DNA from: a virus
Taxonomy: Duplodnaviria > Caudoviricetes
Length of the DNA: 25,765 nucleotides
Direction: 5' to 3' (one strand)
IMG/VR virus record: IMGVR_UViG_3300030372_001545
Coordinates: 1-25,765 of that record
In this document: one piece after another, positions 1-22,528 of the stretch
How the letters are laid out: the number at the start of each line of letters is the position of its first letter
Position numbering within the stretch: position 1 is the stretch's first letter
Notes under the pieces: generated by a model
The model's input: only the letters and a program-made list of their open reading frames with translations
Told to the model about the DNA's origin: nothing
Databases searched by the model: none
Made by a program: the position numbers and the translations under genes

Positions 1-3000
1 GAAATACTAAAAAGCATTTACTCAAAGAATCAAACTCAACGTGAACACCTCCACCAGTTCTATCTCTGTTCCTATAAGCAAAGTCACCACCTTGCTCTAT
101 AGGTAAGCCTATATTCTGTATTTTTGCACCTTGGTATAACCATATAGATTCACTATCAGCCCAAAACATACCGTAATCACAAGATATAATAGAAGCTTGG
201 CTTAGACATCCACATTGTAATATATTCTCTTCTATAACCATTGTCCTTGGGTTTATCATATATGTAGTGCTTTTACTAAAAGCAAATAGCTTACCATTGT
301 AATAGCTTATTGCTGTTGGGTATTCTGGCAACTCTAAGAAATCAGTAGACCAATCATAGATATTGAACTTGCCCGGCTTAGACCTGAATATATAATTAGA
401 ATTATCATCAAGGGACTGGTGCCAAGCATCTGCTATAAACATATATCCATCCCCAACAACAGATAATCCATAGTGAGGTTGCGTATTCTCTAGTAACTCA
501 CTTACACCTGTCCTTGTTTCATAGGTTTCACCAGTTTTTCCCTTATCTGTAATAGTGCAATTCCATTCATTTGAGCCAGTACTTGCTGAAGTCCACTTAA
601 CATCATCTAATGGTATTTGTTCAATTAACTGATAAAAAGCCTTAGGGAAAGCAACATCTTCAGTTGTTCTTGAGCGATATAAATTTATATGAGAAACTCT
701 TTTTGAAATATTTTCTATATTAGGAATTGTTATTTTAATATTTAAACAATCTCCAGTTGTTTGAACAGTCCAGCCAGAATTAGTATCAACTGATGAGCCT
801 AAGGTCTCAGACAATGGAGACTCTTGAAATCCATCATAAACAAAGCTAAAAGCATAATACATATACTGAGGGGTTAATGGGTCTTCTAATGCTCCAGAGC
901 TACCACCATCTGCTGGTGTATCCTTAGCAAAGAATCCTATAAAATCAGATGTTCCTGCGGCAATAGGAGTGCCTATCCTAGCATTGTTAGCGGCGGCTGA
1001 ACCATTACCAACATTATCAAATCCAGTAATAGTTAAATATGGAACTTGAGCTTTAAAACCAAGCGTAGAACTTACAGCAGTGATACCATCATCTAGATTT
1101 GTACTAAACATATAGGATATCTCACCTTTACTTTGATTAGTGACAACCATTAAACCTGTATTAGGGTGTATAATTCCAGTAGGTTTAAAATCCCATTGCG
1201 TTGCGGGGTCATCTGAGCTAAAGGTAATATTTGCTTGTTTATCTTCTGCAAGTTCGTGCTGTAATACCATAGTCCTAACATATCCCATTTTCCCACCATA
1301 GGCATCTTCCCATTCTCTAAACTTGATTCGCTTTGCAGTATCGTTTCCACTATTAAAATCGTAACTTGCAAATTGAGTAAATCTATCACTTCCATAAGCA
1401 CTTGCATCTCTATATGCTACATACCTACCAGAATTTCCATCTCCACCCATATTCATACCTTCTGCTCTTGGATGCTGAACAAGGTCTGTAGAAGCACCAT
1501 TAGCCGCAAATGCTCCAATAATTATCTCACTAGCTGACTTGCCTGTTGAGGTAGCATAAAAGTTATCATTTTCTTTATGAAAAGGATTTTTATAAAAGAA
1601 AGTATCTTTAGCCCAACTATTAGCACCGCTACTAGTCTGTAATGAATTTGCATCGTGTAATAGGTCTATATTATAGGATTTAATATTTCCATCAGTATCA
1701 AAAATACTCAACCTTTGTTTAGTTGCCCCATCTTGCGCAATTAATCCTCTAGTAAAGTTACTAGGTCTCCCTTGTTGATTGAGATATGTTCTACCATCTC
1801 GTGAATTAGGATTGATAAGCCCCCATCTACTTTTATTAAATTCGTCACTTCCTAAATCATCCTTATTATATCCCCCAGAGTGCATTGTATCCTGAGCTAA
1901 TGGAATAATTAAAGGCTTCTTTGTAAAACCTTCAGCCGTACCATCAACAATATTCAATGTAACTACTTGACTAGCTGGTAATCCAGCAACCTCTACCTCC
2001 TTAGGTCTTGCAGAAGAACCTGAACCTGTTAATACCAACCTGTCCCTATTTGCTAAAAAGGTAACATCCTCTCCTCCGTTTTGAAAAGAATCAGCATAAT
2101 AACAAGAACTACTTACTAATTCAGCCCATAATTGTTGCTGTTGCATTAAATGTTCGTTTCTCCCTATTGCAACTTCTTGCTCATTATTCCAACCTCTATC
2201 AGATGCTGAATAAACACAAAAAACCCCTACTCTATCAGCTTCTCCTACATCCATCAATCCAAATTGAAATGTTTGAAGAACACCCGCTTCTCTCTCCCCT
2301 AGCCTTTTTGCAAAGCCTCCATATTGTGACCATATATTCCCAAAGTGTGGCGAACTACTCCCATCATATATGTACTGAGGAGCAGTTTCAAATGCGTTTT
2401 GATTTTCATTAGTACCAGTAGTTCCTTGAGGATGACCTCCCTCAGAAGGGTCATAATTACCTCTAATAATAACACTGTTTATACTGTTGTAAGGCTCTGC
2501 TAGAGAAAGTTGGTTTATCTTATAAAACTCTCTAGTTGATGGGCTTCTATTATCTAATCTCAATCTCCCTGCTTCATTTACAGTGGGTTCCATTCCAGTA
2601 GGGTGCGCAGGGTTTGCTAAGGTAGTAGACCACAACCATTCTTGGTCAAAGGTATGTCCACATATAGGAGGATACCAAGCATCTTCTTCGGGTGTGCCAG
2701 TTTCATAATCAGGGTCTGAATTGTAAGGAGCATAATCTCTTTTGCCATCAAAATTCCAAGAAGCTTGAAACCATATCTTACCTGTTCCACCTGAGCCAGT
2801 ATTAAACCTTGAATCTGTTGGCGTTACCATTATATGGCTATACCAAGCACCTCCAGCTGGGTCATCTGGCTTTCTTCTTCTAGTACATATACCCGGAGCT
2901 GTATCAGGTAGGGGATAAGGCCAGTTTGTATTATATTTTTCAAAAGCTCCTACAGTAGGACTTTTAGTATTGCCACTATCGTGAACACCTGTAAACTTAA

Positions 3001-4291
3001 AACAATGTAATAGCCCATTGTCTACATCATCAAGCACATACAGATGAGGGCCATCAGATGCTATTGAAATAGGGGAAGTTATACTAGTGTCTTCTGCTCC
3101 ATATTTATAATATTGTATAACATTAGCAGTAGCGCCAAGGGTAACTGTTTGAGTTCTAAATATATATATATCTGACTTACCAAATTGAAACCCTGCCCAA
3201 TAATCATACTCCCAAGTACCACTAGCGCCTGCTTTATTTCCACTAGCATCATACCAATTAGTAGTAGTTATTCTTACTAAATCATCTAATATTGGAATTT
3301 CAGTAGGTATTTTTAATTCAGCATCTTCTATAATAACTGTATTCTCACCAAACTCTCTATCCCATTGTTTATACTGCTGAATACCTGCCCACTTTGGTGG
3401 AGTATTAGACTTGCCACCTAATCCAACAGCAACACTTTTGCTATTTAATTGCTGGAAATCTGCTTTGTTTGAGTTTGTTGATAAAATTCCAGCATTGCTT
3501 TTTTCATCAGAAAGAGTAGGAGCATTGTTGGGGTCAAGGTTTATAACCTTATCAATGTTGTGATGTACATTTAAAATTCCATTTATAAATTTTAATAAAT
3601 GAGCACCATCTCTAGTTTTCAAAACGTGCATATCACTGGTAACTGTTCCATTTGCGTGATATATGAAACTTATTTCTTCACCAAGCGTGAAATAATCAAA
3701 GCTATTCCAATAAAGCATTAATCCATTTCCTATGCTTTCTCCATTATTTGTCCCAACATCAGCTGTTACACCAGCGGCTGGAGTCCATCCTTGATTTTCT
3801 CCATTAACTACTGTTTTATATCTATATTTTAAATTTGTATTGGTACAACTTTTTACCTTAAGAGTTAAGTCATTAGTTGGACTAGAGCCTCCAATAAGAT
3901 TACCTGCTACCTTAACAGTATCACCCGGTTTATACCCAGAGCGTGCAACTCCACCTACTGCATTACTACTACTTGTTGCAAGATAAGTCCCAGCTTTAAT
4001 TTCTAAGGTTAATGTTAAATTAGAATTTCCAGTAGAGCTTACATTAGTAGTGGCAACGTTGCTATATGTACCATTTGTTAACCCACTGCCCGGGCCAGAA
4101 ACTGCCGCCCATACCATATCTTGAGGGACACCTTCTGTTAATTCATCTACCCTTATAGTATAAGCAGTGTCTTCTGTTCCAGTAAAATTTCCTTCAACAC
4201 GAATAGAAGTGTTTTTTGAACCTACAGTTTGAAACTGGTCTCCTGCTGGAGATGAAAAACTTTGTACATTATCTGGTGTTGCTAACGCCAT
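1..4291 (-). CDS. Large tail protein, probable nozzle / DNA-stabilisation (P22 gp10 / T7 gp12-like) with accessory domains; partial, >1430 aa, runs off the left edge
   Basis: Translated by hand: ATG at 4291 (MALATPDNVQSFSSPAGDQF...) with no in-frame stop down to position 1. The distal part has propeller-type motifs typical of phage stabilisation proteins (YIFRSKPGKFNIYDW, PTAISYYNGKLFAFSKSTTYMIN, GCLSQASIISCDYGMFWADSESIWLY). Confidence 0.75.
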   Translation of the reverse strand, partial: MALATPDNVQSFSSPAGDQFQTVGSKNTSIRVEGNFTGTEDTAYTIRVDELTEGVPQDMVWAAVSGPGSGLTNGTYSNVATTNVSSTGNSNLTLTLEIKAGTYLATSSSNAVGGVARSGYKPGDTVKVAGNLIGGSSPTNDLTLKVKSCTNTNLKYRYKTVVNGENQGWTPAAGVTADVGTNNGESIGNGLMLYWNSFDYFTLGEEISFIYHANGTVTSDMHVLKTRDGAHLLKFINGILNVHHNIDKVINLDPNNAPTLSDEKSNAGILSTNSNKADFQQLNSKSVAVGLGGKSNTPPKWAGIQQYKQWDREFGENTVIIEDAELKIPTEIPILDDLVRITTTNWYDASGNKAGASGTWEYDYWAGFQFGKSDIYIFRTQTVTLGATANVIQYYKYGAEDTSITSPISIASDGPHLYVLDDVDNGLLHCFKFTGVHDSGNTKSPTVGAFEKYNTNWPYPLPDTAPGICTRRRKPDDPAGGAWYSHIMVTPTDSRFNTGSGGTGKIWFQASWNFDGKRDYAPYNSDPDYETGTPEEDAWYPPICGHTFDQEWLWSTTLANPAHPTGMEPTVNEAGRLRLDNRSPSTREFYKINQLSLAEPYNSINSVIIRGNYDPSEGGHPQGTTGTNENQNAFETAPQYIYDGSSSPHFGNIWSQYGGFAKRLGEREAGVLQTFQFGLMDVGEADRVGVFCVYSASDRGWNNEQEVAIGRNEHLMQQQQLWAELVSSSCYYADSFQNGGEDVTFLANRDRLVLTGSGSSARPKEVEVAGLPASQVVTLNIVDGTAEGFTKKPLIIPLAQDTMHSGGYNKDDLGSDEFNKSRWGLINPNSRDGRTYLNQQGRPSNFTRGLIAQDGATKQRLSIFDTDGNIKSYNIDLLHDANSLQTSSGANSWAKDTFFYKNPFHKENDNFYATSTGKSASEIIIGAFAANGASTDLVQHPRAEGMNMGGDGNSGRYVAYRDASAYGSDRFTQFASYDFNSGNDTAKRIKFREWEDAYGGKMGYVRTMVLQHELAEDKQANITFSSDDPATQWDFKPTGIIHPNTGLMVVTNQSKGEISYMFSTNLDDGITAVSSTLGFKAQVPYLTITGFDNVGNGSAAANNARIGTPIAAGTSDFIGFFAKDTPADGGSSGALEDPLTPQYMYYAFSFVYDGFQESPLSETLGSSVDTNSGWTVQTTGDCLNIKITIPNIENISKRVSHINLYRSRTTEDVAFPKAFYQLIEQIPLDDVKWTSASTGSNEWNCTITDKGKTGETYETRTGVSELLENTQPHYGLSVVGDGYMFIADAWHQSLDDNSNYIFRSKPGKFNIYDWSTDFLELPEYPTAISYYNGKLFAFSKSTTYMINPRTMVIEENILQCGCLSQASIISCDYGMFWADSESIWLYQGAKIQNIGLPIEQGGDFAYRNRDRTGGGVHVEFDSLSKCFLVF

Positions 4292-5440: not shown

Positions 5441-5618
5441 CTTTCCTATCTTGCTCCATTTGCATAAGTTTCGCAGTAATATAGATAGAAAGGTCTAAAG
5501 CTTCTTCAAGAGCCTCCTTAACCCAGTCTCTTCCATCATTAACATCTAACTGGTCAGCGTACTCTTTCTTACCCTTTTCTAGCCTTGCTTCTATCTTCTT
5601 TACTATTTCTTTGTTCAT
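5433..5618 (-). CDS. Small all-alpha MazG-like / NTP-pyrophosphatase-like protein
   Basis: GKKEY...DGRDWVKEALEEALDLSIY contains an EExxD helix. The likely start is ATG 5618, overlapping the upstream TGA (ATGA), rather than 5633. Confidence 0.5.
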   Translation of the reverse strand: MNKEIVKKIEARLEKGKKEYADQLDVNDGRDWVKEALEEALDLSIYITAKLMQMEQDRKDA

Positions 5619-6394
5619 ATCAATTCTCCCCATAGAGAAGCGTGTCCATTTATAATTTGGATTATATGGACAGTAAAATAGCCATTACCAAAGTAATCTA
5701 CCACAGCAAAAGCGTGTTGCCAGTTGTGTTTTCTATTCATAAGCCAATCGTTTGATTTTGAATCTAATTTCTTTAAACATCCTATACTCCAAGCACTCTT
5801 GACACCATCCAAGTGGGTAACTGAAGATTGCTGAATATCGTGATGATGACCGTACATAACATTTGAACCAAGACGGATAAGATGATTGCGGGTATGGTTG
5901 ATACCAGCAAAATGATTTCCGTGATAGTAAAATAACTTACCAATCTTGAGATATTTTCCCATAGGATAGTATTTGAACCCTCTTCCCTCCAAGCAGGCAT
6001 CTGGAAAGTTATACCCGTGACAGTAGGGGTTTTCATCTTGGAACCTATTAAGCCAATCATCGTGGTTTCCTTCGCAGAAGTACTTTTCTGTACAGTTAAC
6101 TTTATCAAGGGCTTCATCAATCTTGTCTAGCCCCTTGTTGACTTGTGCGATTTCTTCGTCCACGAATGGAATTTGATATTCCAAAGGCGGTCTTTTCTTT
6201 TTCTTCCATTGCCAAGATGAAACACTAAACCATTCCCCGACATCGCCGAGGTCTACATAAAAGTCTGGTTTTACTATGCCTATTGCTTTTATCAAGCATC
6301 TAATGGCTCCTTTATCCTCTAGTGGAAAGTGTTTGTCTGGTGTTATTATACCCCTCTTGACAACTCCTTTATCTAATTTGGTAATTGCTCCCAA
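5615..6394 (-). CDS. Calcineurin-like metallophosphoesterase
   Basis: All five motifs present in order: PDKH, LGDVGE, EGNHD, YHG, GHHH. Confidence 0.9.
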   Translation of the reverse strand: MGAITKLDKGVVKRGIITPDKHFPLEDKGAIRCLIKAIGIVKPDFYVDLGDVGEWFSVSSWQWKKKKRPPLEYQIPFVDEEIAQVNKGLDKIDEALDKVNCTEKYFCEGNHDDWLNRFQDENPYCHGYNFPDACLEGRGFKYYPMGKYLKIGKLFYYHGNHFAGINHTRNHLIRLGSNVMYGHHHDIQQSSVTHLDGVKSAWSIGCLKKLDSKSNDWLMNRKHNWQHAFAVVDYFGNGYFTVHIIQIINGHASLWGELI

Positions 6395-7784: not shown

Positions 7785-7924
7785 AGTTTCTCCGGAATAT
7801 CAAGCCCACCTACAGACCATCCACCATCACAAGCACTTAATAACAATACTGCGAATAGAACCATAAATATTGCTACTCCCACTGCTGACCAAAAATCTTT
7901 ATTAAAATTAGGATGTCTTTCCAT
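7781..7924 (-). CDS. Small lipoprotein (o-spanin-like candidate; 47 aa, not in ORF track)
   Basis: MERHPNFNKDFWSAVGVAIFMVLFAVLLLSA-CDGGWSVGGLDIPEKL: hydrophobic signal and LSAC lipobox; TAATG and GTGA coupling at its two ends. Confidence 0.65.
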   Translation of the reverse strand: MERHPNFNKDFWSAVGVAIFMVLFAVLLLSACDGGWSVGGLDIPEKL

Positions 7925-8961
7925 TAGGATACCATTGCCGCAGTTATATACCTTAGGTTGTTACCAGAGTATCTATGTTTAGCGCCATTAGTCCTTACCC
8001 TAGCCCCATATATATCATCGTGATTAGACGAGGCTAAAAAACTATCTGAATATGTGTGAGTTGGTGTACCAGAACCAATATCGGAATCTAAATAGACTTC
8101 TAAATAAGGTGCTGATGCCCTTGATGGTTTCCAGTATAACTCACATTCATCGTTACCGTGGTTAAAACTAGTAGAACTTCCTCCATCTATTGTAAGCCAA
8201 GTTAGAGTACTAGTACTATTAACATATTTTCCTATTCCCCCATAATACCTATTACCTCTGTAGGCATAACCTATAACAAGATGGTCACAATTAGCATATT
8301 GGTCTCCAGTGGTATCTGAAGTATCTTGCCCTAGTTCAAACATTACATAAGCCGCTCTCGTATTTCTAACAAAATCAATTCCTTGCCATTCGACTTTAAA
8401 AGAATTAGTAAAACCCACTTGTGCTGGAAATCCCTCATTTGGGCCATACCTAAGTGCATTCGAACTATTTGCGCTAAAATATGACCCCTTTAATTGATTA
8501 CTCATAGTAGTCTGTAGGATACTCCCCGAACTAAGGTCGCATTCATAAGCGACTCTTTCTACAGAATAATTACCATCTGCATCAGCAGTACCTTCAGTAC
8601 CGAAAGTTATATTTCCAGTATCTGTCCAAGCAGTCGTATCGTAAGTATCACCTGCAGTATCAGTATTTTGGCTACTTACATTATACCAACTAGTAGGTCT
8701 GTGAAAATCCTCTGCCCATATATATGGTCTTGCATTTGCAGGTATACTACTACCAGTAGCACTATGGTCATACGAATAAAACTCAGACATTAAATGAGGC
8801 GCTGAACCATCTGGTCTATCAGCAGAATCGTTATGAGTATTAATAGTGGCTATTCCACCAGTGGAAGCATTTTGCAAACCAACTGCATTACCTGCTGACC
8901 TTCCTAACTCAACACCAATATCAGCGCCAAGTCTTATCGCTCCTGAGCTACCTATTGCCAT
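7924..8961 (-). CDS. Tail-fibre tip adhesin / receptor-binding protein
   Basis: N-terminus MAIGSSGAIRLGADIGVELG...PDGSAPHLMSEFYSYDH is the attachment-type domain I associate with genes following S74-chaperone fibres (positional analogue of T-even gp38); beta-rich C-terminal domain. Confidence 0.65.
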   Translation of the reverse strand: MAIGSSGAIRLGADIGVELGRSAGNAVGLQNASTGGIATINTHNDSADRPDGSAPHLMSEFYSYDHSATGSSIPANARPYIWAEDFHRPTSWYNVSSQNTDTAGDTYDTTAWTDTGNITFGTEGTADADGNYSVERVAYECDLSSGSILQTTMSNQLKGSYFSANSSNALRYGPNEGFPAQVGFTNSFKVEWQGIDFVRNTRAAYVMFELGQDTSDTTGDQYANCDHLVIGYAYRGNRYYGGIGKYVNSTSTLTWLTIDGGSSTSFNHGNDECELYWKPSRASAPYLEVYLDSDIGSGTPTHTYSDSFLASSNHDDIYGARVRTNGAKHRYSGNNLRYITAAMVS

Positions 8962-10117
8962 TTTCCAGCATCTTAACTTTTTTCGTAAGTTCTTTTATTG
9001 ATTCGATAAGAAGCGGGGCTAATTTTTCATATTTAACTGCTTTATGACCATCTTCACGAGTAACCACAATTTCAGGACAAACTGTTTCTATTTCCTGAGC
9101 TATAATTCCAACATCTTTTTCCCTAACAAAGAATCCATCTTCACCACCTCTGTCTTTAATAACTTTTGCCTTCCAGTCAAAATTATATCCACCAATAGAC
9201 ATAAGTTTATCTAAGGGGTTTGCTATTGGTTTAATATTCTTTTTCATTGCAATATCTGAACCATAATAAGCAGTTACTTCATTAATTGCTCTTACTTCTC
9301 CAGTATGAGTAAATGTTATTTTATCGTTATAAGAGCCACCTGTTTTATTTAAAAAAGCCAAGGTGTGGTCAGTATTTAATCTTATTTTCCATAAGTCTTC
9401 ATCATCATTTTCATCATCAGCAGAAAATTCAATAGAGCAAGGATAAGTTGCGTTACCTTCAAGTTTTAAATTTGTAGCACCCGTATCATCCCTTATAACT
9501 AAATCGCCTTCAATATCAAAAGATGTTGTACCTTTCAATGACAGAGTAGTAGCGGCCATAGTTAATCCAGCAGTATTACCTGCTGTCATCGTAATAGTAT
9601 TAGTGCCAAAAGCAATTTTAGTATCAGTATCCCCACTATGAACCATATCACCGGGAATATATAAATCTCCACCAATAGTAACAGTTTGCGAAGAATTTAT
9701 TGATATACCAGTTGTTCCACCAGTAACTAAACTCACTTCATCAGTTCCAAATGAAAGATAAGTATTAGTATCTCCATCGTGAATAAGCTTTTCATCAATA
9801 GTTACATCTCCAAATGATTGGTCGGTAGACAAACTAACAGTTACAGTATTAGCTGAATAGTTAGTGCTAACACCAGTTCCACCTGCAATATCAACAGTTG
9901 AGCCTTGCTGAACAGTTCCACCGCCACCTCCATCTGCTTGTAAAGTGAATGTAGTTAACTGATTAGTATTAGTATCTGTATCCGTAGGGGTGGCCCAAGT
10001 TCCATCCTTTTTTAAGAATGTAGAACCACTGCCACCCCCCAAGTTTGCTAATGCTACCCCAGAAGGGAAGTCCCCTGAAGGACTTGATTCGTGTAGTACC
10101 TTTTTCCAACTAGCCAA
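8948..10117 (-). CDS. Distal tail fibre with C-terminal intramolecular chaperone (peptidase S74)
   Basis: Cleavage-site motif AYYGSDIAMKKNIKPI, then GYNFDWK, VGIIAQEIETVCPEIV, VKYEKLAPLLIESIKEL. Internal HDGDTNT/HSGDTDT repeats. TTG start with GGAG SD. Confidence 0.9.
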   Translation of the reverse strand: MASWKKVLHESSPSGDFPSGVALANLGGGSGSTFLKKDGTWATPTDTDTNTNQLTTFTLQADGGGGGTVQQGSTVDIAGGTGVSTNYSANTVTVSLSTDQSFGDVTIDEKLIHDGDTNTYLSFGTDEVSLVTGGTTGISINSSQTVTIGGDLYIPGDMVHSGDTDTKIAFGTNTITMTAGNTAGLTMAATTLSLKGTTSFDIEGDLVIRDDTGATNLKLEGNATYPCSIEFSADDENDDEDLWKIRLNTDHTLAFLNKTGGSYNDKITFTHTGEVRAINEVTAYYGSDIAMKKNIKPIANPLDKLMSIGGYNFDWKAKVIKDRGGEDGFFVREKDVGIIAQEIETVCPEIVVTREDGHKAVKYEKLAPLLIESIKELTKKVKMLENGNR

Positions 10118-10120
10118 TTT

Positions 10121-10357
10121 TTAGACTCCGTTTGGTGTAGATACTATTTCGGTGTTTGGTGGTTGATAACCAACAAATTCACCTGTTTTAGCTTTATGTG
10201 AGTCAAGGGCTTTTTGAAACTTACCTCTAAGTTTACCTATTCGTTCAGCTTCATTGCCTTTGACAGTAGATTGGTCGATTAATTGGATAACGAAAAAGGT
10301 CTCCAATGCTTCCAACTTCACATTATACTGCGGTTCAGTCTCTTTTTTCTGAGCCAT
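10121..10357 (-). CDS. Small helical fibre-associated protein, paralogue 2
   Basis: Likely start ATG 10357 after SD AAGGAGAG (track starts at 10408); shares L-x3-E-x2-F-x3-LID-x5-G-x3-E-x7-K-[LF]-Q with 11816..12019. Confidence 0.7.
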   Translation of the reverse strand: MAQKKETEPQYNVKLEALETFFVIQLIDQSTVKGNEAERIGKLRGKFQKALDSHKAKTGEFVGYQPPNTEIVSTPNGV

Positions 10358-10379
10358 TTGTTCTCTCCTTTTCTTATAT

Positions 10380-11816
10380 TTATGATATTCTGACGTAAGG
10401 TGTCCCACTATTCAAGTCATTATCTACTGCAATACTTCCTATAGGAGCTTGGTCGCCACTTGGAGTGCTATTGCTATTAGTACATAATGCAACTTGATGT
10501 ACGTTCTCTGTCCCTGCTGTTGCGCTTATATCATCAGCTGTCGTATCATCTTCATTCAGATTAGCGGCTACACCAGCCATATGTAAGTGACCAGTTCCAG
10601 CATCGTAATACAACATTGCATCAATCGCATTTGTAGTTACTACACCTTCTGTAGCGGCATCTCCACCACCTCTATCAAAAACAAGTCCCATATCTCTCCA
10701 AGAAGAAGTTCCTGCTCTTAGTTTGATTTGAGAATCTGCTACATTTACAGTTTCAACAGTTGTATTCGTTACAGTGCTTGTTCCAGTAACCTGTAAGTTA
10801 CCACCAACAATCATATTCCCACTTGTTTCAAGATTAGAGCTAAATGTCTTTGCTCCTGCAATAGTCTGAGTGCCAGTAGTTAAAATACCTGAAGCACTAC
10901 CTGACGCTGAAGGAATTGCGGCATCAGAACCCGTAGATGAATTACAAGTTGGGCCAGCAGTTGTTCCAGCTGTCCAAGATATGTTAGTAGCAACGTGCGG
11001 GGTATCGCAAGTATTTGCTGATGTTTGGTCAGCATTTGCATCAGTACATTTAGCCGCTGTATAACCCACTGCGATAGTTGAGCCTTGCCAAGTACCAGTA
11101 CCGATTGTACCTAATGTTGTGATACTTGTAGTACCAGCTGCCGCTATAGTAGCGCCAGCAATAGTTAAAGCATCAGTTTCTAGCGTACCATCAATATCTG
11201 CGTCTCCAGAGATATCTAAGCTACCAGCTTCTATTTCACCAGCCGACTTGATTTTAACAGCACTAGAGCCATCAATTAGGAAGTTGATATTGTTGTCGGT
11301 GCTAAAATCGATGTAAGCATCCGACCCACTATAACCAATCTTTAATCCAGAATTGTATATGCTTGTTATTCCAGTTTGAGCCGCAGTCACTGCAACTTCA
11401 GGTGTTGCTGTACTACCATCATTTACTGTGATACCAGTTCCTGCGTCTACACCTGTAACATCTCCTGAAGATGCAGATGCCCACGAAGGGATTCCTGAAG
11501 CAAGGGTTAAGACTTCTCCGTCAGTTCCCTTAGCTAATTTTGCTAATGTCGTGCTACCAGAAGCATATAAAATATCTCCCGCTGTCCACGACGCTATGTT
11601 TGTTCCTCCATTAGCAACGCCTAAGGTATTTGTTACGCCAATATCAGTACAGTTTGCCGCACCTGTAAAAGCAGTTGAAGCATTAGTCTCATCAAGGTCA
11701 ACCAAAAAGGTTCTACCAGTCTCTAATGCCGCCGCTTGAGATGCAACTGTAGTTATTGCCGCAGGGAAATCCCCAGCCGCTGATGATTCGTGGAGGAGTT
11801 TTTTCCAAGTTGCCAT
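10380..11816 (-). CDS. Middle tail-fibre segment
   Basis: 478 aa, G/T/A/S-rich with fibre motifs (LGVANGGT, GDILYASG, GTIGTGTWQG, QTIAGAKTF, GNLQVTGTST); N-terminus MATWKKLLHESS. Confidence 0.85.
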   Translation of the reverse strand: MATWKKLLHESSAAGDFPAAITTVASQAAALETGRTFLVDLDETNASTAFTGAANCTDIGVTNTLGVANGGTNIASWTAGDILYASGSTTLAKLAKGTDGEVLTLASGIPSWASASSGDVTGVDAGTGITVNDGSTATPEVAVTAAQTGITSIYNSGLKIGYSGSDAYIDFSTDNNINFLIDGSSAVKIKSAGEIEAGSLDISGDADIDGTLETDALTIAGATIAAAGTTSITTLGTIGTGTWQGSTIAVGYTAAKCTDANADQTSANTCDTPHVATNISWTAGTTAGPTCNSSTGSDAAIPSASGSASGILTTGTQTIAGAKTFSSNLETSGNMIVGGNLQVTGTSTVTNTTVETVNVADSQIKLRAGTSSWRDMGLVFDRGGGDAATEGVVTTNAIDAMLYYDAGTGHLHMAGVAANLNEDDTTADDISATAGTENVHQVALCTNSNSTPSGDQAPIGSIAVDNDLNSGTPYVRIS

Positions 11817-12019
11817 TATATGACCTCCTTATGATTCATTAACTGTTCCATTTTGTTCTGAAGTTTCAATTTTACTTGTAGAGCCAACTCCAGAAACTTA
11901 CCTTGATGGACTCCTTCGTCTATCAAGCGTAACATAAACCCTACTTCTTTAACGTTTAAACTATTATCAGGCCTTTCCTCTTCTTTTTTAGCCAGCGGTA
12001 TTTTATTCAACCCCGACAT
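11816..12019 (-). CDS. Small helical fibre-associated protein, paralogue 1
   Basis: Likely start ATG 12019 (MSGLNKIPL...; track starts at 12055); paralogous to 10121..10357; TAATG-coupled to the fibre gene. Confidence 0.7.
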   Translation of the reverse strand: MSGLNKIPLAKKEEERPDNSLNVKEVGFMLRLIDEGVHQGKFLELALQVKLKLQNKMEQLMNHKEVI

Positions 12020-12362
12020 ATAACTGACTATCCTTGTAGTAAACTCCACCTTCAATAGCCGTAGGAGTTCCTGATTGTTCTTTTAATTTTAGCACACCAT
12101 TGTAATCAATAGAGAATTTAACATCTGAATCATTAGCAAACTGAGCTAAGTTCCCATTTGATAAAGCACTACTTACACTATCTGAATCCGTAGATTCAAA
12201 TTCAAATCTTCCGTCATTGTCAGCATCAGTTCCACCAATTCCTGCTAAATCAAGAACCTCTACATCAGCTGAACCATTATCATAATAAAGTTTGTTATCA
12301 GTTTTTCTAAATATCAAGTTCGTATAAACTTGGGAAATTACATTATCTGTTAAAGTTGCCAT
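12003..12362 (-). CDS. Short proximal tail-fibre segment
   Basis: 119 aa with SD AGGAGGG; beta-rich; ends TPTAIEGGVYYKDSQLYVGVE. Confidence 0.65.
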   Translation of the reverse strand: MATLTDNVISQVYTNLIFRKTDNKLYYDNGSADVEVLDLAGIGGTDADNDGRFEFESTDSDSVSSALSNGNLAQFANDSDVKFSIDYNGVLKLKEQSGTPTAIEGGVYYKDSQLYVGVE

Positions 12363-13739: not shown

Positions 13740-14002
13740 TATGTTAAATCCCTATGTTTAGGACGACCAGCGAGTCGATTTATAGTTTTACCATCGTAAT
13801 CCACCGAGCGAATTTCTAGTATATGGTCTGCAAGTTTATAACCTCGCTGGTTCGCCACTATATCAAATTTATCAGCAGATTCTAAAATCTTGGTTCTTGC
13901 TGAGAACTCATCCTGCGCTCTATTAAGTAGCTTCATAGCCTCAATAGTTCCTATTTCAGGATGTTGCTGATTTATAATTTCTACCATTTCTTTAAGTTTC
14001 AT
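13739..14002 (-). CDS. Head-tail adaptor-like protein, N-terminal half
   Basis: MKLKEMVE...LLNRAQDEF...VANQRGYKLADHILEIRSVDYDG matches adaptor N-termini (LN-x-A helix; Q-x2-Y-x-L; I-x2-V). Confidence 0.6.
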   Translation of the reverse strand: MKLKEMVEIINQQHPEIGTIEAMKLLNRAQDEFSARTKILESADKFDIVANQRGYKLADHILEIRSVDYDGKTINRLAGRPKHRDLT

Positions 14003-14726
14003 CTTGCCCCCTAGTCATACCTTCAAATTGAAACATCTGGTCATACTCTTGAGCTATAATTTGTCTTTGACTTTGTAACCATTTATAGTCTAAAGCAAAC
14101 TGCTGTTGTTCAGCTGTCATTGCTTGGGCTTTTGCGCTTGCCAATTCTACATCCTCATCATCTTCAATATAATATCTGACCTTCTCCCAACCTTGTGAAG
14201 CTTCAGCTGGGTCTGCGTGACCTCCATCAGAACTATCACTAAGAGTAGCAAGTGAATCTCTCATATCCATAAGTTTCTTATCACATAGTTTCTTAGCCGC
14301 ATAAAGTATTACTGCCCTATACCACTCTGCTGGAAAGTTTGCTATTGCAGAAGTAGTCTGATTAGCGTTACTAACAGCTCCATATTGAACTACATTTGCA
14401 GAAGCAGATGTTCCACTACCAAAGTTTGTAGCAGTTGGCATAGCCGCACCACTTGAGACACTCGCTAGATTATCAGTGTATTGAGCCCAATCATTTCCAG
14501 TGATTGTAGTCAGCAACTTAAATGTATTTAAAGCAGGCGAGCTACTAGTAGTTGCAGTACTTCTGTATATCTTTCTACTTGTTATGTTTAACAAGTCCTC
14601 CCTAGGCACATTATAGATTCTTACTTTAGCCGCACTTCCAGACTCAGTAATGCTTTTTACATTAGAGGGCCCAGTTTCTTTGCCATCTACATCTACATAA
14701 GTGAATCTGTAATGATAAGTTGCCAT
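13992..14726 (-). CDS. Fn3-like domain fused to an adaptor-like C-terminal half
   Basis: YHYRFTYVDVDGKETGPS...RKIYRS...FKLL...YTD, then IANFPAEWYRAVILYAAKKL and DDEDVELA helical region. Confidence 0.6.
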   Translation of the reverse strand: MATYHYRFTYVDVDGKETGPSNVKSITESGSAAKVRIYNVPREDLLNITSRKIYRSTATTSSSPALNTFKLLTTITGNDWAQYTDNLASVSSGAAMPTATNFGSGTSASANVVQYGAVSNANQTTSAIANFPAEWYRAVILYAAKKLCDKKLMDMRDSLATLSDSSDGGHADPAEASQGWEKVRYYIEDDEDVELASAKAQAMTAEQQQFALDYKWLQSQRQIIAQEYDQMFQFEGMTRGQDET

Positions 14727-16214: not shown

Positions 16215-17534
16215 TTAAGACCATTTAAGAACAGCGTGTGTCTCTGGAAGACTGATTTCTAAACCGGCTTCGGTTAGAACCATATCTTTACGTCCATCAA
16301 CGTTGTTGTTCTGTACGTTAGTGATAATATGAGTATCACGAGATACTCCATTACCCTTGAGTGGTCTATATGCAACATTAGACATATCTACTGCTACACA
16401 ATGATTTTCCCAAGGCCCACGAAGTAGTGGGTCAGCAACAAAATGAAGATTACCAAACACGGTATTCACCATTGTTACCTGATGTCCAAAAGCACCTTTG
16501 ATGTTTTGAACGTCTAGGCTGTACTGAGAAGAACCAACGCTGTTATTCAGGAAGGAACCAGAACCCAACTTGTTCAAGTAAGAGATAACCTTACGAGAAG
16601 CAAGTACAAGTTTATTCCCGCTATTTCCACCTTCAGGAGCGAAGAAATCTTCCATCGCATCTAAGAAAGCGTCATAGCCTGAAGAAGAGTAAGACATATT
16701 GTATATCTTACCATTTGCTTCAGTGTAAGGGAGGATACCCCAAGAGTAGCGCATAGGAGCCGCAGTAGACTCGTCAGCAGAACCAACGCCAAATAGCATT
16801 GCTTGCTCTAAGTCCATTTTGTGTTCCATTAGCTTTTCTTGCCACACTCGTTTGTATTCATCAGCCTTACCTCTGTAGCGAGTAGCTAGAGCTGTACCAG
16901 AGAACATTGGGATTGCAGTTTTAAAAATCTGACAATACCCTTCTCTGTCATACATCTCATCACGCCATCCGTCTGGGTCTGTTCCACCCTCAGAATGTGC
17001 GCTACCAATGACAGCCGCCTTTGCATCATCTGCAAAAGCACAAGTAGCCGCAAACTCAGCCTTGAGTTTAACGTCTGCTGTGCCGGCACCTGAAGTAATA
17101 GAAGGAGTAGAATCCACTCTGAAGCGCCTTACCGTTCCGGCGGTGTCTTCAATAGCGATTATTTGTCCTTCTACGATAAACTCAGGTACATATTCAGAAG
17201 ACTGAATATTACCGTGTCTGTCATAGTTTACATACAGCTTAACTAGGTCATCACCTGAATCATTTACATAGGTGGTACCTGCCGCATAAGTAGCAGAACC
17301 TACTGCCTCGCCTAGGTTTAAATTGCGTCTTTGCCACTGGTGACGTTGTTCAAGAAACTTGAATACAGGGTCGTCAGTTGGCTTTTTAGCAACTTTAGAC
17401 AAATAGACGAAGAAGGGGCTCTGCGCTGGTGCGAGTTCTGCAACTCGCTCACCGAAGTTAAATAATCTTCGGTTATCGTTGATAGATTGACCTTGTGGTG
17501 TTACACCGGGGTCAACACTATATTGATTAGCCAT
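16215..17534 (-). CDS. Major capsid protein (SU10-MCP / DUF5309-like, HK97 fold)
   Basis: 439 aa after the scaffold; motifs SPFFVYLSK, GYCQIFKTA, EHKMDLEQAMLFG, DGRKDMVLTEAGLEISLPETHA. Confidence 0.9.
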   Translation of the reverse strand: MANQYSVDPGVTPQGQSINDNRRLFNFGERVAELAPAQSPFFVYLSKVAKKPTDDPVFKFLEQRHQWQRRNLNLGEAVGSATYAAGTTYVNDSGDDLVKLYVNYDRHGNIQSSEYVPEFIVEGQIIAIEDTAGTVRRFRVDSTPSITSGAGTADVKLKAEFAATCAFADDAKAAVIGSAHSEGGTDPDGWRDEMYDREGYCQIFKTAIPMFSGTALATRYRGKADEYKRVWQEKLMEHKMDLEQAMLFGVGSADESTAAPMRYSWGILPYTEANGKIYNMSYSSSGYDAFLDAMEDFFAPEGGNSGNKLVLASRKVISYLNKLGSGSFLNNSVGSSQYSLDVQNIKGAFGHQVTMVNTVFGNLHFVADPLLRGPWENHCVAVDMSNVAYRPLKGNGVSRDTHIITNVQNNNVDGRKDMVLTEAGLEISLPETHAVLKWS

Positions 17535-17582
17535 TTCATAACCTCATCATCTATGACTACTCGACCTACCTTAAAACTTATT

Positions 17583-18590
17583 TCATTTCCAAGGATTCTT
17601 GGACTCGTAGTCTGTTATTAAATCATCAATTATTGCATCTTCAGACGACTTATTTGTCGCCTCATTTGAAGATGGCAATACACCCATTGGAGACGGAATA
17701 CTTTGTGCGTTCTTCGTTTGCTGAAAATCAGGGCTCGGAGGAGGTACCTGAGTTTGAGCTGGAGGATTCACATTAGGAGTTCCAGTTTCCAACTGATAAA
17801 GCTTCCACAAATTATCAAGGGATACTGAAGCAGGGTCAGACATTTTCTGAATAAAGTCAGCAACTACGTTTTCATCAGTCACACCGTGAGTATCTGCAAT
17901 ATGCCTTCGAACACCTTCCATAGCCTGACGTTGCTCATTCTGAGCTCTGACAGCGTCTTGACGTTCTTTCTCTGCTTGTTGCATCTTATCACGCTCTGCC
18001 TGTAACATAGCGCCTTGATATTCGACATACAGACGATTGTAGTCGTCCATATCATCTCTCCAAGAATCAACCTCATCAAGATACCTTGCTGATTCTGAAC
18101 TTGGGTCTTCTGTTGCTTCAGCCCTATTGAAACCTGCGGGCTTTTTGGGTTTATCAGGAGCGCTAGGAAATTGCTCAACTTCTGGTTCCTTGGGTGCCTC
18201 TACTGGTTGCTGGGGCGTCTGTTGTCCATTCTGATATTGACTAATCAACTGATTCTTCAATTCATCATTCTGTTTCTGCATTTCAGCAACTGAGTTTTTC
18301 ATCTTATCAGCTTCAGATTGCCAGTATTGATAACGATTTTGGTCATTATCTACTGGTTGTTCCGGAGCTGGCTGAGCTTGTTCCTGATTTACACTACTCT
18401 CATCTGGGGCCGCAAGAGGTCTCTCTGCTACGGGTGCCCATATAGTGTCCTGATTATCACCACCAAAGATAGCATCTTCGATAGAGTCCGTGAGTTGTTC
18501 TTGAGGGTCAGGCTGTGGAGCAACTGGTGCTTCAACTGCTGGCTCTAGAGAATCAACCAATGGAGTGTCTATTGTTGTTTGTTCTGCCAT
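17583..18590 (-). CDS. Capsid scaffolding protein
   Basis: Lies between portal and MCP; acidic, P/Q/E-rich, with coiled-coil segments (YWQSEADK..., ERDKMQQAEKERQ). Confidence 0.8.
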   Translation of the reverse strand: MAEQTTIDTPLVDSLEPAVEAPVAPQPDPQEQLTDSIEDAIFGGDNQDTIWAPVAERPLAAPDESSVNQEQAQPAPEQPVDNDQNRYQYWQSEADKMKNSVAEMQKQNDELKNQLISQYQNGQQTPQQPVEAPKEPEVEQFPSAPDKPKKPAGFNRAEATEDPSSESARYLDEVDSWRDDMDDYNRLYVEYQGAMLQAERDKMQQAEKERQDAVRAQNEQRQAMEGVRRHIADTHGVTDENVVADFIQKMSDPASVSLDNLWKLYQLETGTPNVNPPAQTQVPPPSPDFQQTKNAQSIPSPMGVLPSSNEATNKSSEDAIIDDLITDYESKNPWK

Positions 18591-18607
18591 TACTTTTTCC
18601 TGTATGT

Positions 18608-20992
18608 TTAGGAGCTCTTCTTTTTCTTACCGGACGAAGAGGTATCCTTGTTCTTTTCATCCTTAGAGGCCTCTCTGACCTCTTTGGATATTTGTCCAGT
18701 TGCATCTTGAAGGCGTTTTTCAAAGAGTGTCCCTGCCGCTTTTGCTTTGTTTGACTGGGAGTCTAAGTCCGCCTTAAATTTTTCTAATTCAGCTTTCTGC
18801 TTAGCGTGATAAACTTCTCTTTCTCTTGTCTGTATATCACCCTCTAAATCTTTAATCTGTTCTTGGAGTTGTTCTAATTGCTGTTCTAACTGACCAATAT
18901 AATCAGTTCGTTGCATAACACCCTCAACATCGAAAACTTCTGTCTTCTTGAGAACTTCTTGTCTATCTATAATCTGGTTCTTATAAGCATCCATATATAG
19001 TTCTAATTGTGCAAATCTATTTGTAGGTAGAGTACTACCTGTTACGACCACAACATCGTAAGCCCCAACCCCTATGTCATTTATCTTATTGATTTCACCT
19101 GTCTTGTCATCAACCATCCTTTTGTTAATCATAAACTCTGACATAGTCTGATTAGGATTAATTAATCTAAAAAGTTTTTCAGATTTATACAACTGTTGAC
19201 ACATAGGAATTGCAACTTCACCTGCACGCTTCAATCCGGCTTCAATATCCATTAATTTAGACCGTATCTTCCGTTGCCCAAACTCATCAAGAGACACGGT
19301 TGCCTTGTAAGTATGCGGGGCAACATCAGAATTACCCATCATTAGTTCATATAAGCCTAACTGGTGGTCAATATCATTTTTCGCTGTGTTCTCATTTTGG
19401 TATAACTCGTTAGGCAACGGAGTCGGCTGTACTGGCTGAGGGGCGCCTTGGTCGAAATCGACCTCTATGGCTACTCCCGGCTGTGCCCATTTTTGCTCAA
19501 ACTCCCGCATATCAACACTACCCGATGGTACCAATATCTTAACATTAGTACTCGTTGTAGCGTGAGCAATTATTAGACTTCTTGTTTTATTAATGTATTC
19601 CTGCATACCCTTTACCATTCGGACATCACCGATAGGATAAGGTGTACGAGTATGTTGATTCATAAACAAGACAATGGGATATTTGTTTATTGGAAGTAAT
19701 CTTCCGTAAAGATATTTGTCACCCATTATGACACACATCTTAATTCTTTCTTGATTGACCTTGACAACTTCAACTTGTCCTTCTTCTAGGAGGTCGTTCT
19801 TTGTTATTTCTTCGATGGACGGAGGCTGTAATTGCTCCATTTGTGCTTCAAATTGTTTTTGAGCTTGTTTAGCTTCTTCTTGCTGAGACTTCTGGAGGTC
19901 TTGGAGTTGGAGTTCCATCCTCTCAGGTACCATATTACCCAGTTGGACTTCCTCCGCCAGCTTAGTTTGCATTTCCACCATTTGAACTGAATGTTCTCTG
20001 CCCATTCGTGCAAGTGCATACTCGCCTTGAGCTTGAATCTCTGCCAACTGCTGTTCGTATTCCCTCTCGTATTTTTGCGATTCTTGTTCAACGACCGACG
20101 CATCTTCAACAACTTGGCCATTGATTTTCCATAACCTCGTACCTTTATATTCCTCATACTCACCCCCCTCTTCTAGTAAGTATTCCTTACCATTCCATTT
20201 TTCATAAACCCTATAGAGGTTGATTTGAACCTTCATATACCTCTCATATCCACGAACATACTCATCATTTTCGCCCCAACCAACTGCTTGAGTCTTTGTT
20301 TCAGTATCTTCAGGGAATACTAATTCACCATCATCTTCCCTACCTGTAGTAGGTCTATCTGTATATTGGTCTGATTCAGCTTGAGAAATAGCATCTGAAT
20401 ACATAGGATAAAGCTTCATAGCTTGATTCCTAGTATACATTCTTGATATTATAATGCTTTCTGCATCATCCCCAAACCTATCTCTAGAGTTTGGGTCTAT
20501 ATATAAATCAAGAGGGTCAATGTCCCTCATAATAACTTCGCCCTTACCGTTGTCTTTGGTAGGGTCTTGATAGACTAGAAGAGCGCCAAGTCCAGTTACA
20601 TAATAATCATCTACAACATTGCGTAAAGCAGTGTCTCCATCACTAATTTGCCAGATATATTCTAACAAACCATTGAGTACCTGAGCTATCTTATTATCAC
20701 TATCTTCACGAGGAGAGACTCGGAACGAAGGTCTTTTTGAGGTTAAGAGTGCTTTGGCAGACTCAACTGCTGGATGGATTCGATTTACTACTACTGGTGC
20801 TTGGCCTCGCTCTTCTAAAGTTTCTCTTTGTGCGGCAGACCATTGTTTTCCTAGTCTAAATTCTCTGTCTTCCTGTGCGTGTGTAGCCCAGCCATCCCGT
20901 TTATTGGAATACATCCGAAACATATTCTGTGTTTCATCAACTATTTCTTTATATTCCGCCTCAGACTGTGGCTCTCTGTATACTTCTATCAT
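18608..20992 (-). CDS. Portal protein (P22-like)
   Basis: GKQWSAAQRETLEERGQAPVVVNRIHP, IDPLDLYIDP, QEYINKTRS, YDVVVVTGSTLPTNR and a C-terminal coiled-coil barrel; directly after TerL. Confidence 0.92.
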   Translation of the reverse strand: MIEVYREPQSEAEYKEIVDETQNMFRMYSNKRDGWATHAQEDREFRLGKQWSAAQRETLEERGQAPVVVNRIHPAVESAKALLTSKRPSFRVSPREDSDNKIAQVLNGLLEYIWQISDGDTALRNVVDDYYVTGLGALLVYQDPTKDNGKGEVIMRDIDPLDLYIDPNSRDRFGDDAESIIISRMYTRNQAMKLYPMYSDAISQAESDQYTDRPTTGREDDGELVFPEDTETKTQAVGWGENDEYVRGYERYMKVQINLYRVYEKWNGKEYLLEEGGEYEEYKGTRLWKINGQVVEDASVVEQESQKYEREYEQQLAEIQAQGEYALARMGREHSVQMVEMQTKLAEEVQLGNMVPERMELQLQDLQKSQQEEAKQAQKQFEAQMEQLQPPSIEEITKNDLLEEGQVEVVKVNQERIKMCVIMGDKYLYGRLLPINKYPIVLFMNQHTRTPYPIGDVRMVKGMQEYINKTRSLIIAHATTSTNVKILVPSGSVDMREFEQKWAQPGVAIEVDFDQGAPQPVQPTPLPNELYQNENTAKNDIDHQLGLYELMMGNSDVAPHTYKATVSLDEFGQRKIRSKLMDIEAGLKRAGEVAIPMCQQLYKSEKLFRLINPNQTMSEFMINKRMVDDKTGEINKINDIGVGAYDVVVVTGSTLPTNRFAQLELYMDAYKNQIIDRQEVLKKTEVFDVEGVMQRTDYIGQLEQQLEQLQEQIKDLEGDIQTREREVYHAKQKAELEKFKADLDSQSNKAKAAGTLFEKRLQDATGQISKEVREASKDEKNKDTSSSGKKKKSS

Positions 20993-21031
20993 AACCTCAA
21001 AAAGTTGTATTAATCCGATTCAAATTACTAA

Positions 21032-22528
21032 CTACATTGTCAACCAGTCAAGAACTGTTCTAGATTTATTTTCAACCTTTTCAGGGTCAAATTCGTCTCT
21101 AGGAACTCGACAGGGCTTATGTCCATCAAGAGCATAGTATATAGCATCTAGTATATCATCGTGCTTACCCTTAGGATAAGAAAGAAACTCTTGCTGTGCT
21201 GGTAAATCTTTAGGTCTAAAGTGAAATTCGCCCTTTGCTAACATAGGAACGAGCGATATGAGCCTTTCACTCTTCTTATTTCTAGGCTTTACCCCTTTTT
21301 CTAAACCGGGTATATATAGGTTTTGTTCCAACATATTCTTTCTAACAGCCTGTCGGAGAGCCTCCTGATAGCCTGTGGTCTCCACTTTCATACGCTTGGG
21401 ACGATATTTCTTAAAAACCTCGATAATAGTGTCTGGCTGAAGAGCAGGGTTAATCTTATCACGAAATAAATCGACAATATACTTATTACCATCAGAGTCA
21501 ACAGCAATCGTGGCAATAACAAAAAAGTCAGAACGAGCATTGAGTGAACTAGCTGGGTCAATTCCTGAATATAATTCGACTGGTATAATCTCTTTTTGTC
21601 CATTTATTGTCCTTACTAGGCAAGGTTGCCCATTAATTCGTTCAAAACTATAGTGGTGTAATTTAACATATTCAGGCTTAAAAGGTGCATTATCAGGGGC
21701 TTGCGCCTCATTCATATATTCTTGGAAGAATCCATTAAGATTCCCAACCCCCTCGAACTCTTGTTTAATAGAATCAATCCTCTTCATAGGGAATCGTTCA
21801 GGCCATATAGAGCTACCATCCTCTTTTATAATAGAATACCAAAGAACCTTCCACGCAGGAGACTCTTTTGCCCAATATAAGAAACAATCTTCTGAGATTA
21901 CCGTACCAATCATTACAATTCTACCATCATCTGACAGAGATGGGATAACAGCTTCAGTCATCCACTTACGATTCTTAGCCCTAGCTTCGGGCGTATTAGC
22001 GTTTAACTCAGATTCGAAGTCATCAACAATAATAAGGTTAGGACGAGTATCGCCTTCAATAAAACCACGAACCCTTTGCCCTGTACCAACCGCAATTATT
22101 CTAGTTCCATTACTGAGTATGATGTCATTCCCAGTCCATCTTTTAGCTGTGCTAGGCCCCATATCCCCGAAGAGTCTTCGGTAAGTACTCGAATTTTCGA
22201 GATGGTACTTAATCCTTGAGAGGAAGTTAATCGACTGCGTTTGGCTTTCGGAAATGATAACAATAAACAGGTCTTCGTCGTCTGGTTTAAATGCGGCACG
22301 CCAAAGTGGTAGTATTAATGATGAAACAGTAGACTTAGCAGTACCACGAGGAGCGGCAATAAGAACTCTGGGTACTCTAGGATTTTGGAGATTTTTGTAT
22401 ACTTCTGTGTGAAAAGGTGGAATCTCAGCCTTAAGAGCAGTGGGAAAGCAGATTTTCCCAAAGAGCCCCATAGAGCGATAAAACTTCTTAAGCGTTTGCT
22501 GTAGCTCATAATTAGCCTCGTAGTCCAT
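21032..22528 (-). CDS. terL: Terminase large subunit
   Basis: Walker A APRGTAKS, Walker B LIIVDDFE, FFQEYMN, nuclease motifs GIDPAS...SDFF and HDDILDA. Confidence 0.95.
   Translation of the reverse strand: MDYEANYELQQTLKKFYRSMGLFGKICFPTALKAEIPPFHTEVYKNLQNPRVPRVLIAAPRGTAKSTVSSLILPLWRAAFKPDDEDLFIVIISESQTQSINFLSRIKYHLENSSTYRRLFGDMGPSTAKRWTGNDIILSNGTRIIAVGTGQRVRGFIEGDTRPNLIIVDDFESELNANTPEARAKNRKWMTEAVIPSLSDDGRIVMIGTVISEDCFLYWAKESPAWKVLWYSIIKEDGSSIWPERFPMKRIDSIKQEFEGVGNLNGFFQEYMNEAQAPDNAPFKPEYVKLHHYSFERINGQPCLVRTINGQKEIIPVELYSGIDPASSLNARSDFFVIATIAVDSDGNKYIVDLFRDKINPALQPDTIIEVFKKYRPKRMKVETTGYQEALRQAVRKNMLEQNLYIPGLEKGVKPRNKKSERLISLVPMLAKGEFHFRPKDLPAQQEFLSYPKGKHDDILDAIYYALDGHKPCRVPRDEFDPEKVENKSRTVLDWLTM

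Follow-up and report, generated by a model that had tools for sequence, protein, structure and literature searches.

Socket and plug motifs at the ends of successive phage fibre genes suggest a serial fibre joined head to tail

Three fibre genes in the window, the whole analysed stretch of 25,765 nucleotides of the virus record IMGVR_UViG_3300030372_001545, probably encode a single serial trimeric fibre consisting of an anchor, a stalk and a variable tip, the joints of which would be completed in trans at an interface that we infer from the sequences. The upstream piece carries a C-terminal end with two predicted strands, which we call socket, and the next piece starts with a peptide containing WKK, which we call plug. 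The gene order, the location of the socket at the very end of the chain, the near-obligate succession of socket and plug and the lack of a socket in the last piece were observed directly. In this reading, the upstream piece would stop after the second strand of a small beta unit, the missing last strand would come from the WKK peptide of the next piece, and the pieces would thereby lock head to tail; one or two small helical proteins would probably assist by occupying the open socket. Such an end-to-end joining is likely, since an abrupt two-strand end is combined with a conserved short start peptide on the next piece. The trimeric state is suggested by the S74 domain and by the fibre families, and the strand given in trans as well as the position on the tail are likewise predictions.

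Table 1. Features of the fibre cassette and their positions in the window.
Feature	Position	Strand	Description
fibre1	12003-12362	minus	119 aa, ORF; predicted proximal anchor, socket 1 at C-terminus
socket 1	12006..12068	minus	fibre1 residues 99-119; two predicted strands, followed by the stop codon
small protein s1	11816-12016	minus	66 aa from ATG; type a; predicted helical hairpin around invariant Gly
fibre2	10380-11816	minus	478 aa, ORF; predicted middle segment, N-terminal plug 1 and C-terminal socket 2
plug 1	11790..11816	minus	fibre2 residues 1-9, MATWKKLLH
socket 2	10383..10466	minus	fibre2 residues 451-478
small protein s2	10121-10357	minus	78 aa from ATG; type b; s1 paralogue
fibre3	8948-10117	minus	389 aa, TTG start; predicted distal segment, N-terminal plug 2, without socket
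345-aa gene	7924-8961	minus	may encode a tip protein; adjoins fibre3

The fibre starts and ends quoted in an earlier sequence-only reading of this DNA match the ORFs of the window exactly, and the N-termini of fibre2 and fibre3 are indeed alike (62% identity over 21 amino acids, E 1e-7). The claimed likeness between the ends of fibre1 and fibre2 was found at the family level but not pairwise, where blastp gave no alignment and the profile-profile probability was 0.9–1.7%. When the profile of fibre2 ends was made from sequences other than those of the window and its two closest relatives, socket 2 ranked 4th among 437 ORF ends (7.5 bits) and fibre1-type ends made up 17 of the top 30, which indicates a family-level relationship of the two ends. 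Socket 1 scored 41 bits against a profile made from other loci and is carried by 982 protein clusters (50% identity). The socket match was located 0–3 residues from the C-terminus in 150 of the best 150 of these clusters, and 0–2 residues from it in all 120 listed proteins (the best 120 of 612). In the plug, W4 and K5 were invariant in 59 aligned starts. Scans of the cassette for promoters and terminators gave results at or below chance.

WKK genes are generally preceded by a gene with a socket end, as the head-to-tail proposal predicts. In a survey of 91 loci, which were chosen by the plug and searched with a socket pattern composed after the ends had been seen, this applied to 139 of 148 WKK genes (116 of 124 after dereplication) against a background of 20 in 318, with 11 of these 20 being true sockets by eye. 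Plug genes that themselves ended in a socket were followed by another plug gene in 59 of 66 cases, and a socket end was present in none of the 27 last plug genes. The layout occurs in three phage types with differing neighbour genes, and the full cassette was found in the cultured Flavobacterium phage immuto 2-6A (MW353175, genes 215–219), making the question testable at the bench. Exceptions are the plug genes of L027/L074 and L048, which lack a socket gene upstream and for which none was found elsewhere in the records (22, 5 and 5% complete), and the socket genes of L026, L030 and L077, which have no plug gene after them (one pattern match each; records 4–59% complete). Microcystis phage Mel-JY01 contains socket 2 and a small gene, with a plug-like ORF 4.5 kb away. 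The idea that the fibre is extendable by adding cassettes has one three-joint locus (L080) as its basis and no further one. A natural hybrid of 2089 amino acids starts like fibre2 (81% over 142 aa) and continues with a body like that of fibre3 (52% over ~860 aa); neither a socket nor a plug lies inside it, and its record (22% complete) showed no small gene.

Parallel fibres could give rise to such a hybrid as well, and it might be possible that fibre2 and fibre3 are alternatives that dock via WKK on one site, located on fibre1 or on the tail, with the fibre2 end being a conserved trimerisation cap. The two plugs of the window are nearly alike, socket 2 lacks a following plug gene in the three loci named above, and two-strand ends could conceivably close on themselves in a trimer. 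We nevertheless consider parallel docking improbable, since fibre2 ends are conserved and socket-like whereas the ends of the last genes are varied tips, and since a socket-ended plug gene is so regularly followed by another plug gene. In addition, the plugs of large phages differ by position, with MA[TN]WKK being the first in 53 of 60 loci and MP[NS]WKK the second in 46 of 60. The motifs might alternatively be inherited signatures of gene ends, reflecting recombination or translation and involving no contact between proteins. Neighbouring genes of the cassette overlap or abut in the window, and in large phages the third gene has a conserved RNA-like element in front of it, showing that the gene boundaries are under other constraints too. 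However, the invariant Gly, Trp and Lys are conserved at the protein level across intergenic gaps of ~0 to 120 nucleotides and in all three phage types, which makes this explanation very improbable.

The small helical protein could be an obligatory structural connector, in which case socket and plug would form no common unit. In this lineage the fibre genes have small genes between them, at least one small gene is present in 60 of 60 loci with two or more plug genes, and exactly two were found in each of three complete two-joint genomes. The proposal that each junction has a small protein of its own agrees with these three genomes but not with 19 of the 60 loci, in which plug genes outnumber small genes (two against one in 18 loci, three against one in the remaining locus). 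A second small gene was absent from five of five such records (16–56% complete), the socket–plug pair of L091 has no small gene in its record (12% complete), and the first junction lacks one in most large-phage loci. The strict one-to-one rule was thus rejected, and a single small protein seems able to act at two or more joints. An obligatory connector is therefore unlikely, and it would also leave unexplained why socket 1 resembles a unit from which only the last strand is missing. Most likely the small helical proteins bind the open socket of the proposed serial fibre; a role as assembly chaperone has close to an even chance, and a collar that is kept in the virion is somewhat less probable.

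The small protein s1 scored 31 bits against the type-a profile, and its model (pLDDT 82) contains helices at residues 22–34 and 40–65. For s2, 25 bits were obtained against the type-b and 21.5 against the type-a profile, and it is 31% identical to s1 (E 0.004). The alignment of the small proteins is without any conserved stretch. Family searches with socket and small proteins gave nothing consistent: no family was common to more than one (Pfam) or more than two (PHROG) of 65 small-protein members, and they matched no family of known tail-fibre assembly chaperones in Pfam, PHROG or PDB. Strong PDB matches of the small-protein profile to designed repeat proteins were rejected as summed weak repeats. 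Cellulophaga phage phi17:2, which gave a weak fold match, was discarded because the profile had no match there; it found nothing in A-1(L), S-SM1 or C48C1 either. A tblastn search with s2 of the window and two small proteins of locus L225 returned no cultured phage. The top matches in BFVD were uncharacterised or unnamed small phage proteins, and the family is absent from the databases searched.

The AlphaFold model of fibre1 (pLDDT 80; strands 16-19, 24-28, 33-38, 71-93, 107-110 and 113-116) consists of a three-strand N-terminal unit, a short beta-rich shaft and two C-terminal strands, the latter with a pLDDT of ~92. Fibre1 has no match in Pfam or PHROG, and the fold search found no PDB entry at E 0.001, the weak top matches being HylP chains (best E 0.09); one uncharacterised viral protein also matched by fold. 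Fibre2 contains a BppL_N repeat (Pfam) at residues 311–328. Fibre3 is a phage tail fibre with an S74 intramolecular chaperone: its C-terminal Peptidase_S74 domain (PF13884, residues 287–351) was detected with E 2e-13 and 50.7 bits, against a curated cut-off of 22, and many tail-fibre PHROGs matched. For the 345-aa gene, the earlier label "adhesin" found no support in Pfam or PHROG, and only its first 66 amino acids are common (56%) to the equivalently placed gene of L001.

There are 34 proteins that end in a single-chain unit continuing into a Trp strand, and socket 1 appears to resemble these caps weakly, without the one further strand. The hhalign comparison gave E 0.0012, a score of 19.1 and a probability of 20%, with the best of 40 column-shuffled controls reaching 11.4. 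For the plug and for socket 2, no significant alignment with the single-chain unit was obtained, and a wider comparison against such units found just two. One of the 34 proteins (P0138) has a plug at its start and this closed unit at its end. Socket and plug fused in register in one chain were found in none of 62 loci detected with the DNA pattern (59 chance matches and three ordinary sockets) and in none of the 270 matches listed from profile searches. With regard to an incomplete acceptor fold, as in donor-strand exchange, the observations are the two-strand end of the monomer model and the faint resemblance to single-chain units that run longer. The split-motif reading, with its putative interface, agrees with the gene adjacency, the chain-terminal sockets, the socket-free last genes and the Trp strand of the single-chain units.

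If the proposed joint exists, a nine-residue plug and a socket of ~25 residues would explain how tips are swapped while the anchor is kept in many aquatic phages. The window and L001 might be an example of this, with fibre1 being 97% identical and fibre3 31%. A small phage protein family that has no function would gain one, and the joint would serve trimeric proteins as a minimal non-covalent connector. Fibres of several gene products joined head to tail (A-1(L), T4) and docking peptides at the N-terminus (KP32) have already been published; a split socket/plug unit together with small proteins was not found in the literature searched. A wider proposal is tentative and in our view rather unlikely: trimeric phage fibres would have a widespread, unnamed trans-complementation joint, a 3+3 beta unit whose split lies at a fixed strand. 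Each joint would have its own plug, a closed single-chain cap would terminate a chain, and small helical chaperones of a new family would occupy the open socket until the plug comes in. Such a joint would be the phage counterpart of donor-strand exchange in pili, and fibre segments could be exchanged or added one gene at a time.

The long tail fibre of T4 has small assembly helpers, and we know of no repeated socket/plug pair in it. It is built serially from the gene products gp34-gp35-gp36-gp37, according to excerpts of a published account (PMC12143355). The cassette, as a proposed serial multi-gene fibre with putative small helpers, resembles it; the socket profile matched no T4 fibre chain in the PDB. 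The neck fibre of the Anabaena myophage A-1(L) is encoded by three adjacent genes (gp82-gp81-gp80), with anchor, middle and tip trimers arranged head to tail, and in the part of the description available beta-hairpins at the N-terminus of gp81, a globular bead present in ~14 copies, are modelled onto the preceding trimer (PMC10966104). On this partial description, three adjacent genes and, in the proposed fibre, serial pieces are common to both systems. In the gp80-gp82 region no socket, plug or small-protein profile match exceeded 7 bits, and this fibre would work alike but belong to another family.

In the Klebsiella phages KP32, K11 and KP34, extracts from published work state that a short conserved N-terminal peptide is needed to attach the second receptor-binding protein to the first, the partner in the KP32 type being an internal T4gp10-like branching domain, which results in a branch (PMC13352976, PMC6872550). 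Judged from these extracts, the plug is like the docking peptide by analogy, homology aside; the predicted partner here differs in being the extreme C-terminus, repeated in series and accompanied by small helper genes. Fibre1 and fibre2 had no Pfam, PHROG or PDB match to a T4gp10-like branching domain, with one low T4_gp9_10_N atlas row (0.86). The nearest named clusters of fibre1 by language-model features, to be taken as leads, were PF26696 PTL_trimer (0.89), PF18454 Mtd_N (0.88) and PF07212 Hyaluronidase_1 (0.87); the Mtd_N profile had no match in the window. All three are single-chain families; the unit of the cassette, in contrast, ends prematurely.

In chaperone-usher pili, monomeric pilins with Ig folds are complemented by the N-terminal strand of another chain. 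At the tail of phage DT57C, a strand of LtfA augments the complete sheets of LtfC, according to passages of the published study (PMC10713586). To the extent of those passages, both systems are similar to the proposed joint, in which the N-terminal strand of one chain would complete or extend the beta-sheet of another; unlike LtfC, the acceptor here would be a truncated unit at the end of a fibre.

The cassette of fibre and small-protein genes is real and widespread. In the window its six genes stand in the order that the sequence-only reading had given, on one strand, following a capsid-portal-terminase block of SU10/P22 type (see table). Besides its S74 chaperone domain, fibre3 matched many tail-fibre families. 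The family searches (Pfam, PHROG) gave no match for fibre1, for the 345-aa gene or for either small protein (s1, s2). A search with fibre1 led to 9 related loci, and the gene order is the same in those whose contigs reach far enough (L001, L002, L006, L008 and the complete genome of L005). Identity between the window and L001 falls from 97% for fibre1 to 65% for fibre2 and 31% for fibre3, indicating a variable tip. Since the head module is of SU10/P22 type and close relatives are complete genomes at 52–55 kb, the window is probably from a podovirus-like phage. The same layout extends to phages as large as ~190 kb and to a third type (L010, L225), and the full cassette is present in the cultured Flavobacterium phage immuto 2-6A (genes 215–219). 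Elsewhere in the window, the 244-aa protein carries a module of ~95 residues matching PHROG 511, which, judged by eye, appears again towards the C-terminal end of the 1430-aa ORF product.

Features of the window and of the compared loci (L-numbers)
Feature	Location	Strand	Length	Remark
fibre1	window	-	119 aa	
s1	window	-	66 aa	
fibre2	window	-	478 aa	
s2	window	-	78 aa	
fibre3	window	-	389 aa	S74 chaperone domain
unnamed gene after fibre3	window	-	345 aa	
ORF	window 2-4291	-	1430 aa	
metallophosphoesterase	window 5615-6394	-		PHROG 221
protein with PHROG 511 module	window 13992-14726	-	244 aa	
head module	window 16215-22528	-		SU10-type capsid protein, P22-like portal, terminase
endolysin	window 23404-23820	-		M15 peptidase
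RNA-like element	L084:5362-5443	+		
RNA-like element	L017:2732-2815	-		
RNA-like element	L144 near 9870-9955			Immutovirus
natural hybrid	L228:2286-8555	+	2089 aa	record G006
gene with fibre2-type C-terminal domain	L208:2355-4022	+		Microcystis phage Mel-JY01

The like starts of fibre2 and fibre3 (the conserved WKK peptide or plug) were confirmed, with 62% identity across 21 residues. For the like ends claimed for fibre1 and fibre2 (the predicted two-strand socket), blastp gave no alignment and the profile likeness is faint, but the claim held at the level of the families: when the window, L001 and L005 were left out of a profile of fibre2 ends, fibre1-type ends made up 17 of the top 30, and the fibre2 end of the window ranked 4th of 437 ends.

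Searching DNA for a pattern of the WKK start gave at least 120 loci, out of an estimated 550 stretches. Counts were made in 91 loci (the window, L001–L010 and 80 pattern loci with long flanks), leaving out 40 pattern loci whose flanks were 300 nt long, as well as three that duplicate L001/L005. Small genes being skipped, an upstream ORF lay within the locus for 148 of 149 plug genes and ended in the socket pattern in 139 of them, as the sequence-only reading had expected of such a survey; this figure is descriptive, because the pattern was written after the ends had been seen and the loci were picked via the plug. After dereplication the count was 116/124. By comparison, the pattern matched 20 of the 318 ends of other ORFs; by eye, 11 of these 20 are true sockets with the partner outside the locus or variant. 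The nine misses include three cases in which, by eye, the pattern had failed to match, one locus with a socket present (L065), one spurious plug and one inserted gene; L027, L074 and L048 are real exceptions. Genes with both plug and socket were followed by a plug gene in 59 of 66 cases, and none of 27 complete last plug genes ended in a socket. In large phages the plugs are position-specific. The genomic case is strong. The only longer chain seen, in L080, has three plug genes, three socket ends and one small gene. In L064 the first plug gene ends after 21 codons, possibly through a sequencing error or because the gene is broken.

The socket lies strictly at the end of its chain. Its profile matched 612 longer proteins in a word search and 982 clusters in a full search, and the match lay 0–3 residues from the C-terminus in all of the best 120 and best 150, respectively. 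For fibre1 as a monomer, AlphaFold (86 sequences, pLDDT 80) predicts a unit of three strands at residues 16–38 and only two strands at the C-terminal end. A related single-chain unit, running on into a Trp-bearing strand, ends 34 proteins; it aligned with socket 1 (on fibre1) at E 0.0012, better than 40 shuffled controls, yet at 20% probability, and showed no significant alignment with socket 2 (on fibre2) or the plug. In one of these proteins the N-terminus is a plug and the C-terminus the closed unit. Socket and plug fused in register in one chain were not found among pattern matches and the best 150 of the 982 clusters. In Mel-JY01, socket 2 belongs to a C-terminal domain of fibre2 type on a protein that starts without a plug; a minimal 43-aa small protein comes next, and the distance to a plug-like ORF downstream is 4.5 kb. 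By language-model similarity (all < 0.9), fibre1 has neighbours with PTL_trimer, Mtd_N or Hyaluronidase_1, and its top PDB matches in a fold search are HylP, weakly; these are leads only.

The two small proteins, s1 and s2, are paralogues and match the two types, a and b, of large phages. The s1 model is a helical hairpin around an invariant Gly. Pfam, PHROG and PDB searches revealed no family common to 65 members, and the best matches by structure are small phage proteins that are either uncharacterised or unnamed. One dedicated small protein per junction had been proposed. Every multi-joint cassette has at least one small gene, but the one-per-junction rule is not general, since 19 of 60 loci with at least two plug genes (not dereplicated) have fewer small genes than plugs: plugs and small genes numbered two and two in 41, two and one in 18, and three and one in 1. 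No second small gene turned up in five one-small records (16–56% complete), and the number is exactly two in three relatives of the window with complete genomes. In large phages both follow fibre2. L026, L030 and L077 have a third short gene (82–86 aa, predicted by eye to be helical) after the two, with fibre3 missing.

In about 50 large-phage loci, a conserved ~65-nt element, possibly a regulatory RNA, directly precedes the third fibre gene (MP[NS]WKK start). Two hairpins surround an invariant GAAGTGG, and 4 of 10 predicted pairs show compensatory changes (30 sequences). No Rfam match at gathering score was obtained in four loci or the window, where the 3-nt gap before fibre3 leaves no room for the element.

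Gene order, adjacency, terminal sockets, the variable tip and the position-specific plugs of large phages make it reasonably likely that the cassette genes build one serial trimeric fibre. Three plugs would complete three sockets, with donor-strand exchange in pili as the system for comparison; the small protein would be a chaperone or a collar that binds the open socket, and the fibre would be located on the tail. It is rather unlikely that the small protein instead bridges the ends as an adaptor, and slightly less likely still that the fibres dock in parallel. In the natural hybrid, a fibre2 start is joined to a fibre3 body; the joint is missing and the record contains no small gene, which is expected of a serial fibre, yet a parallel arrangement does not forbid it. 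Nor does the hybrid have a fibre1 gene upstream. That the proteins make no contact at all is very improbable. A cultured phage with the cassette makes the socket-plug reading testable.

Searches of the open literature yielded no report of the split unit or of the small proteins, on which subscription papers and supplements may bear, and the small helper family is unnamed. The principle of multi-gene fibre assembly has precedents. The T4 long fibre consists of four gene products (PMC12143355), LtfA donates strands to LtfC in DT57C (PMC10713586), and in KP32-type phages a conserved N-terminal peptide docks a second protein on an internal branching domain (PMC13352976). In A-1(L), the neck fibre is made of trimers joined head to tail via N-terminal hairpins (PMC10966104). 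Profile searches detected no homology of A-1(L) to the socket, plug or small-protein modules; the likeness would lie in the way that trimers join head to tail.
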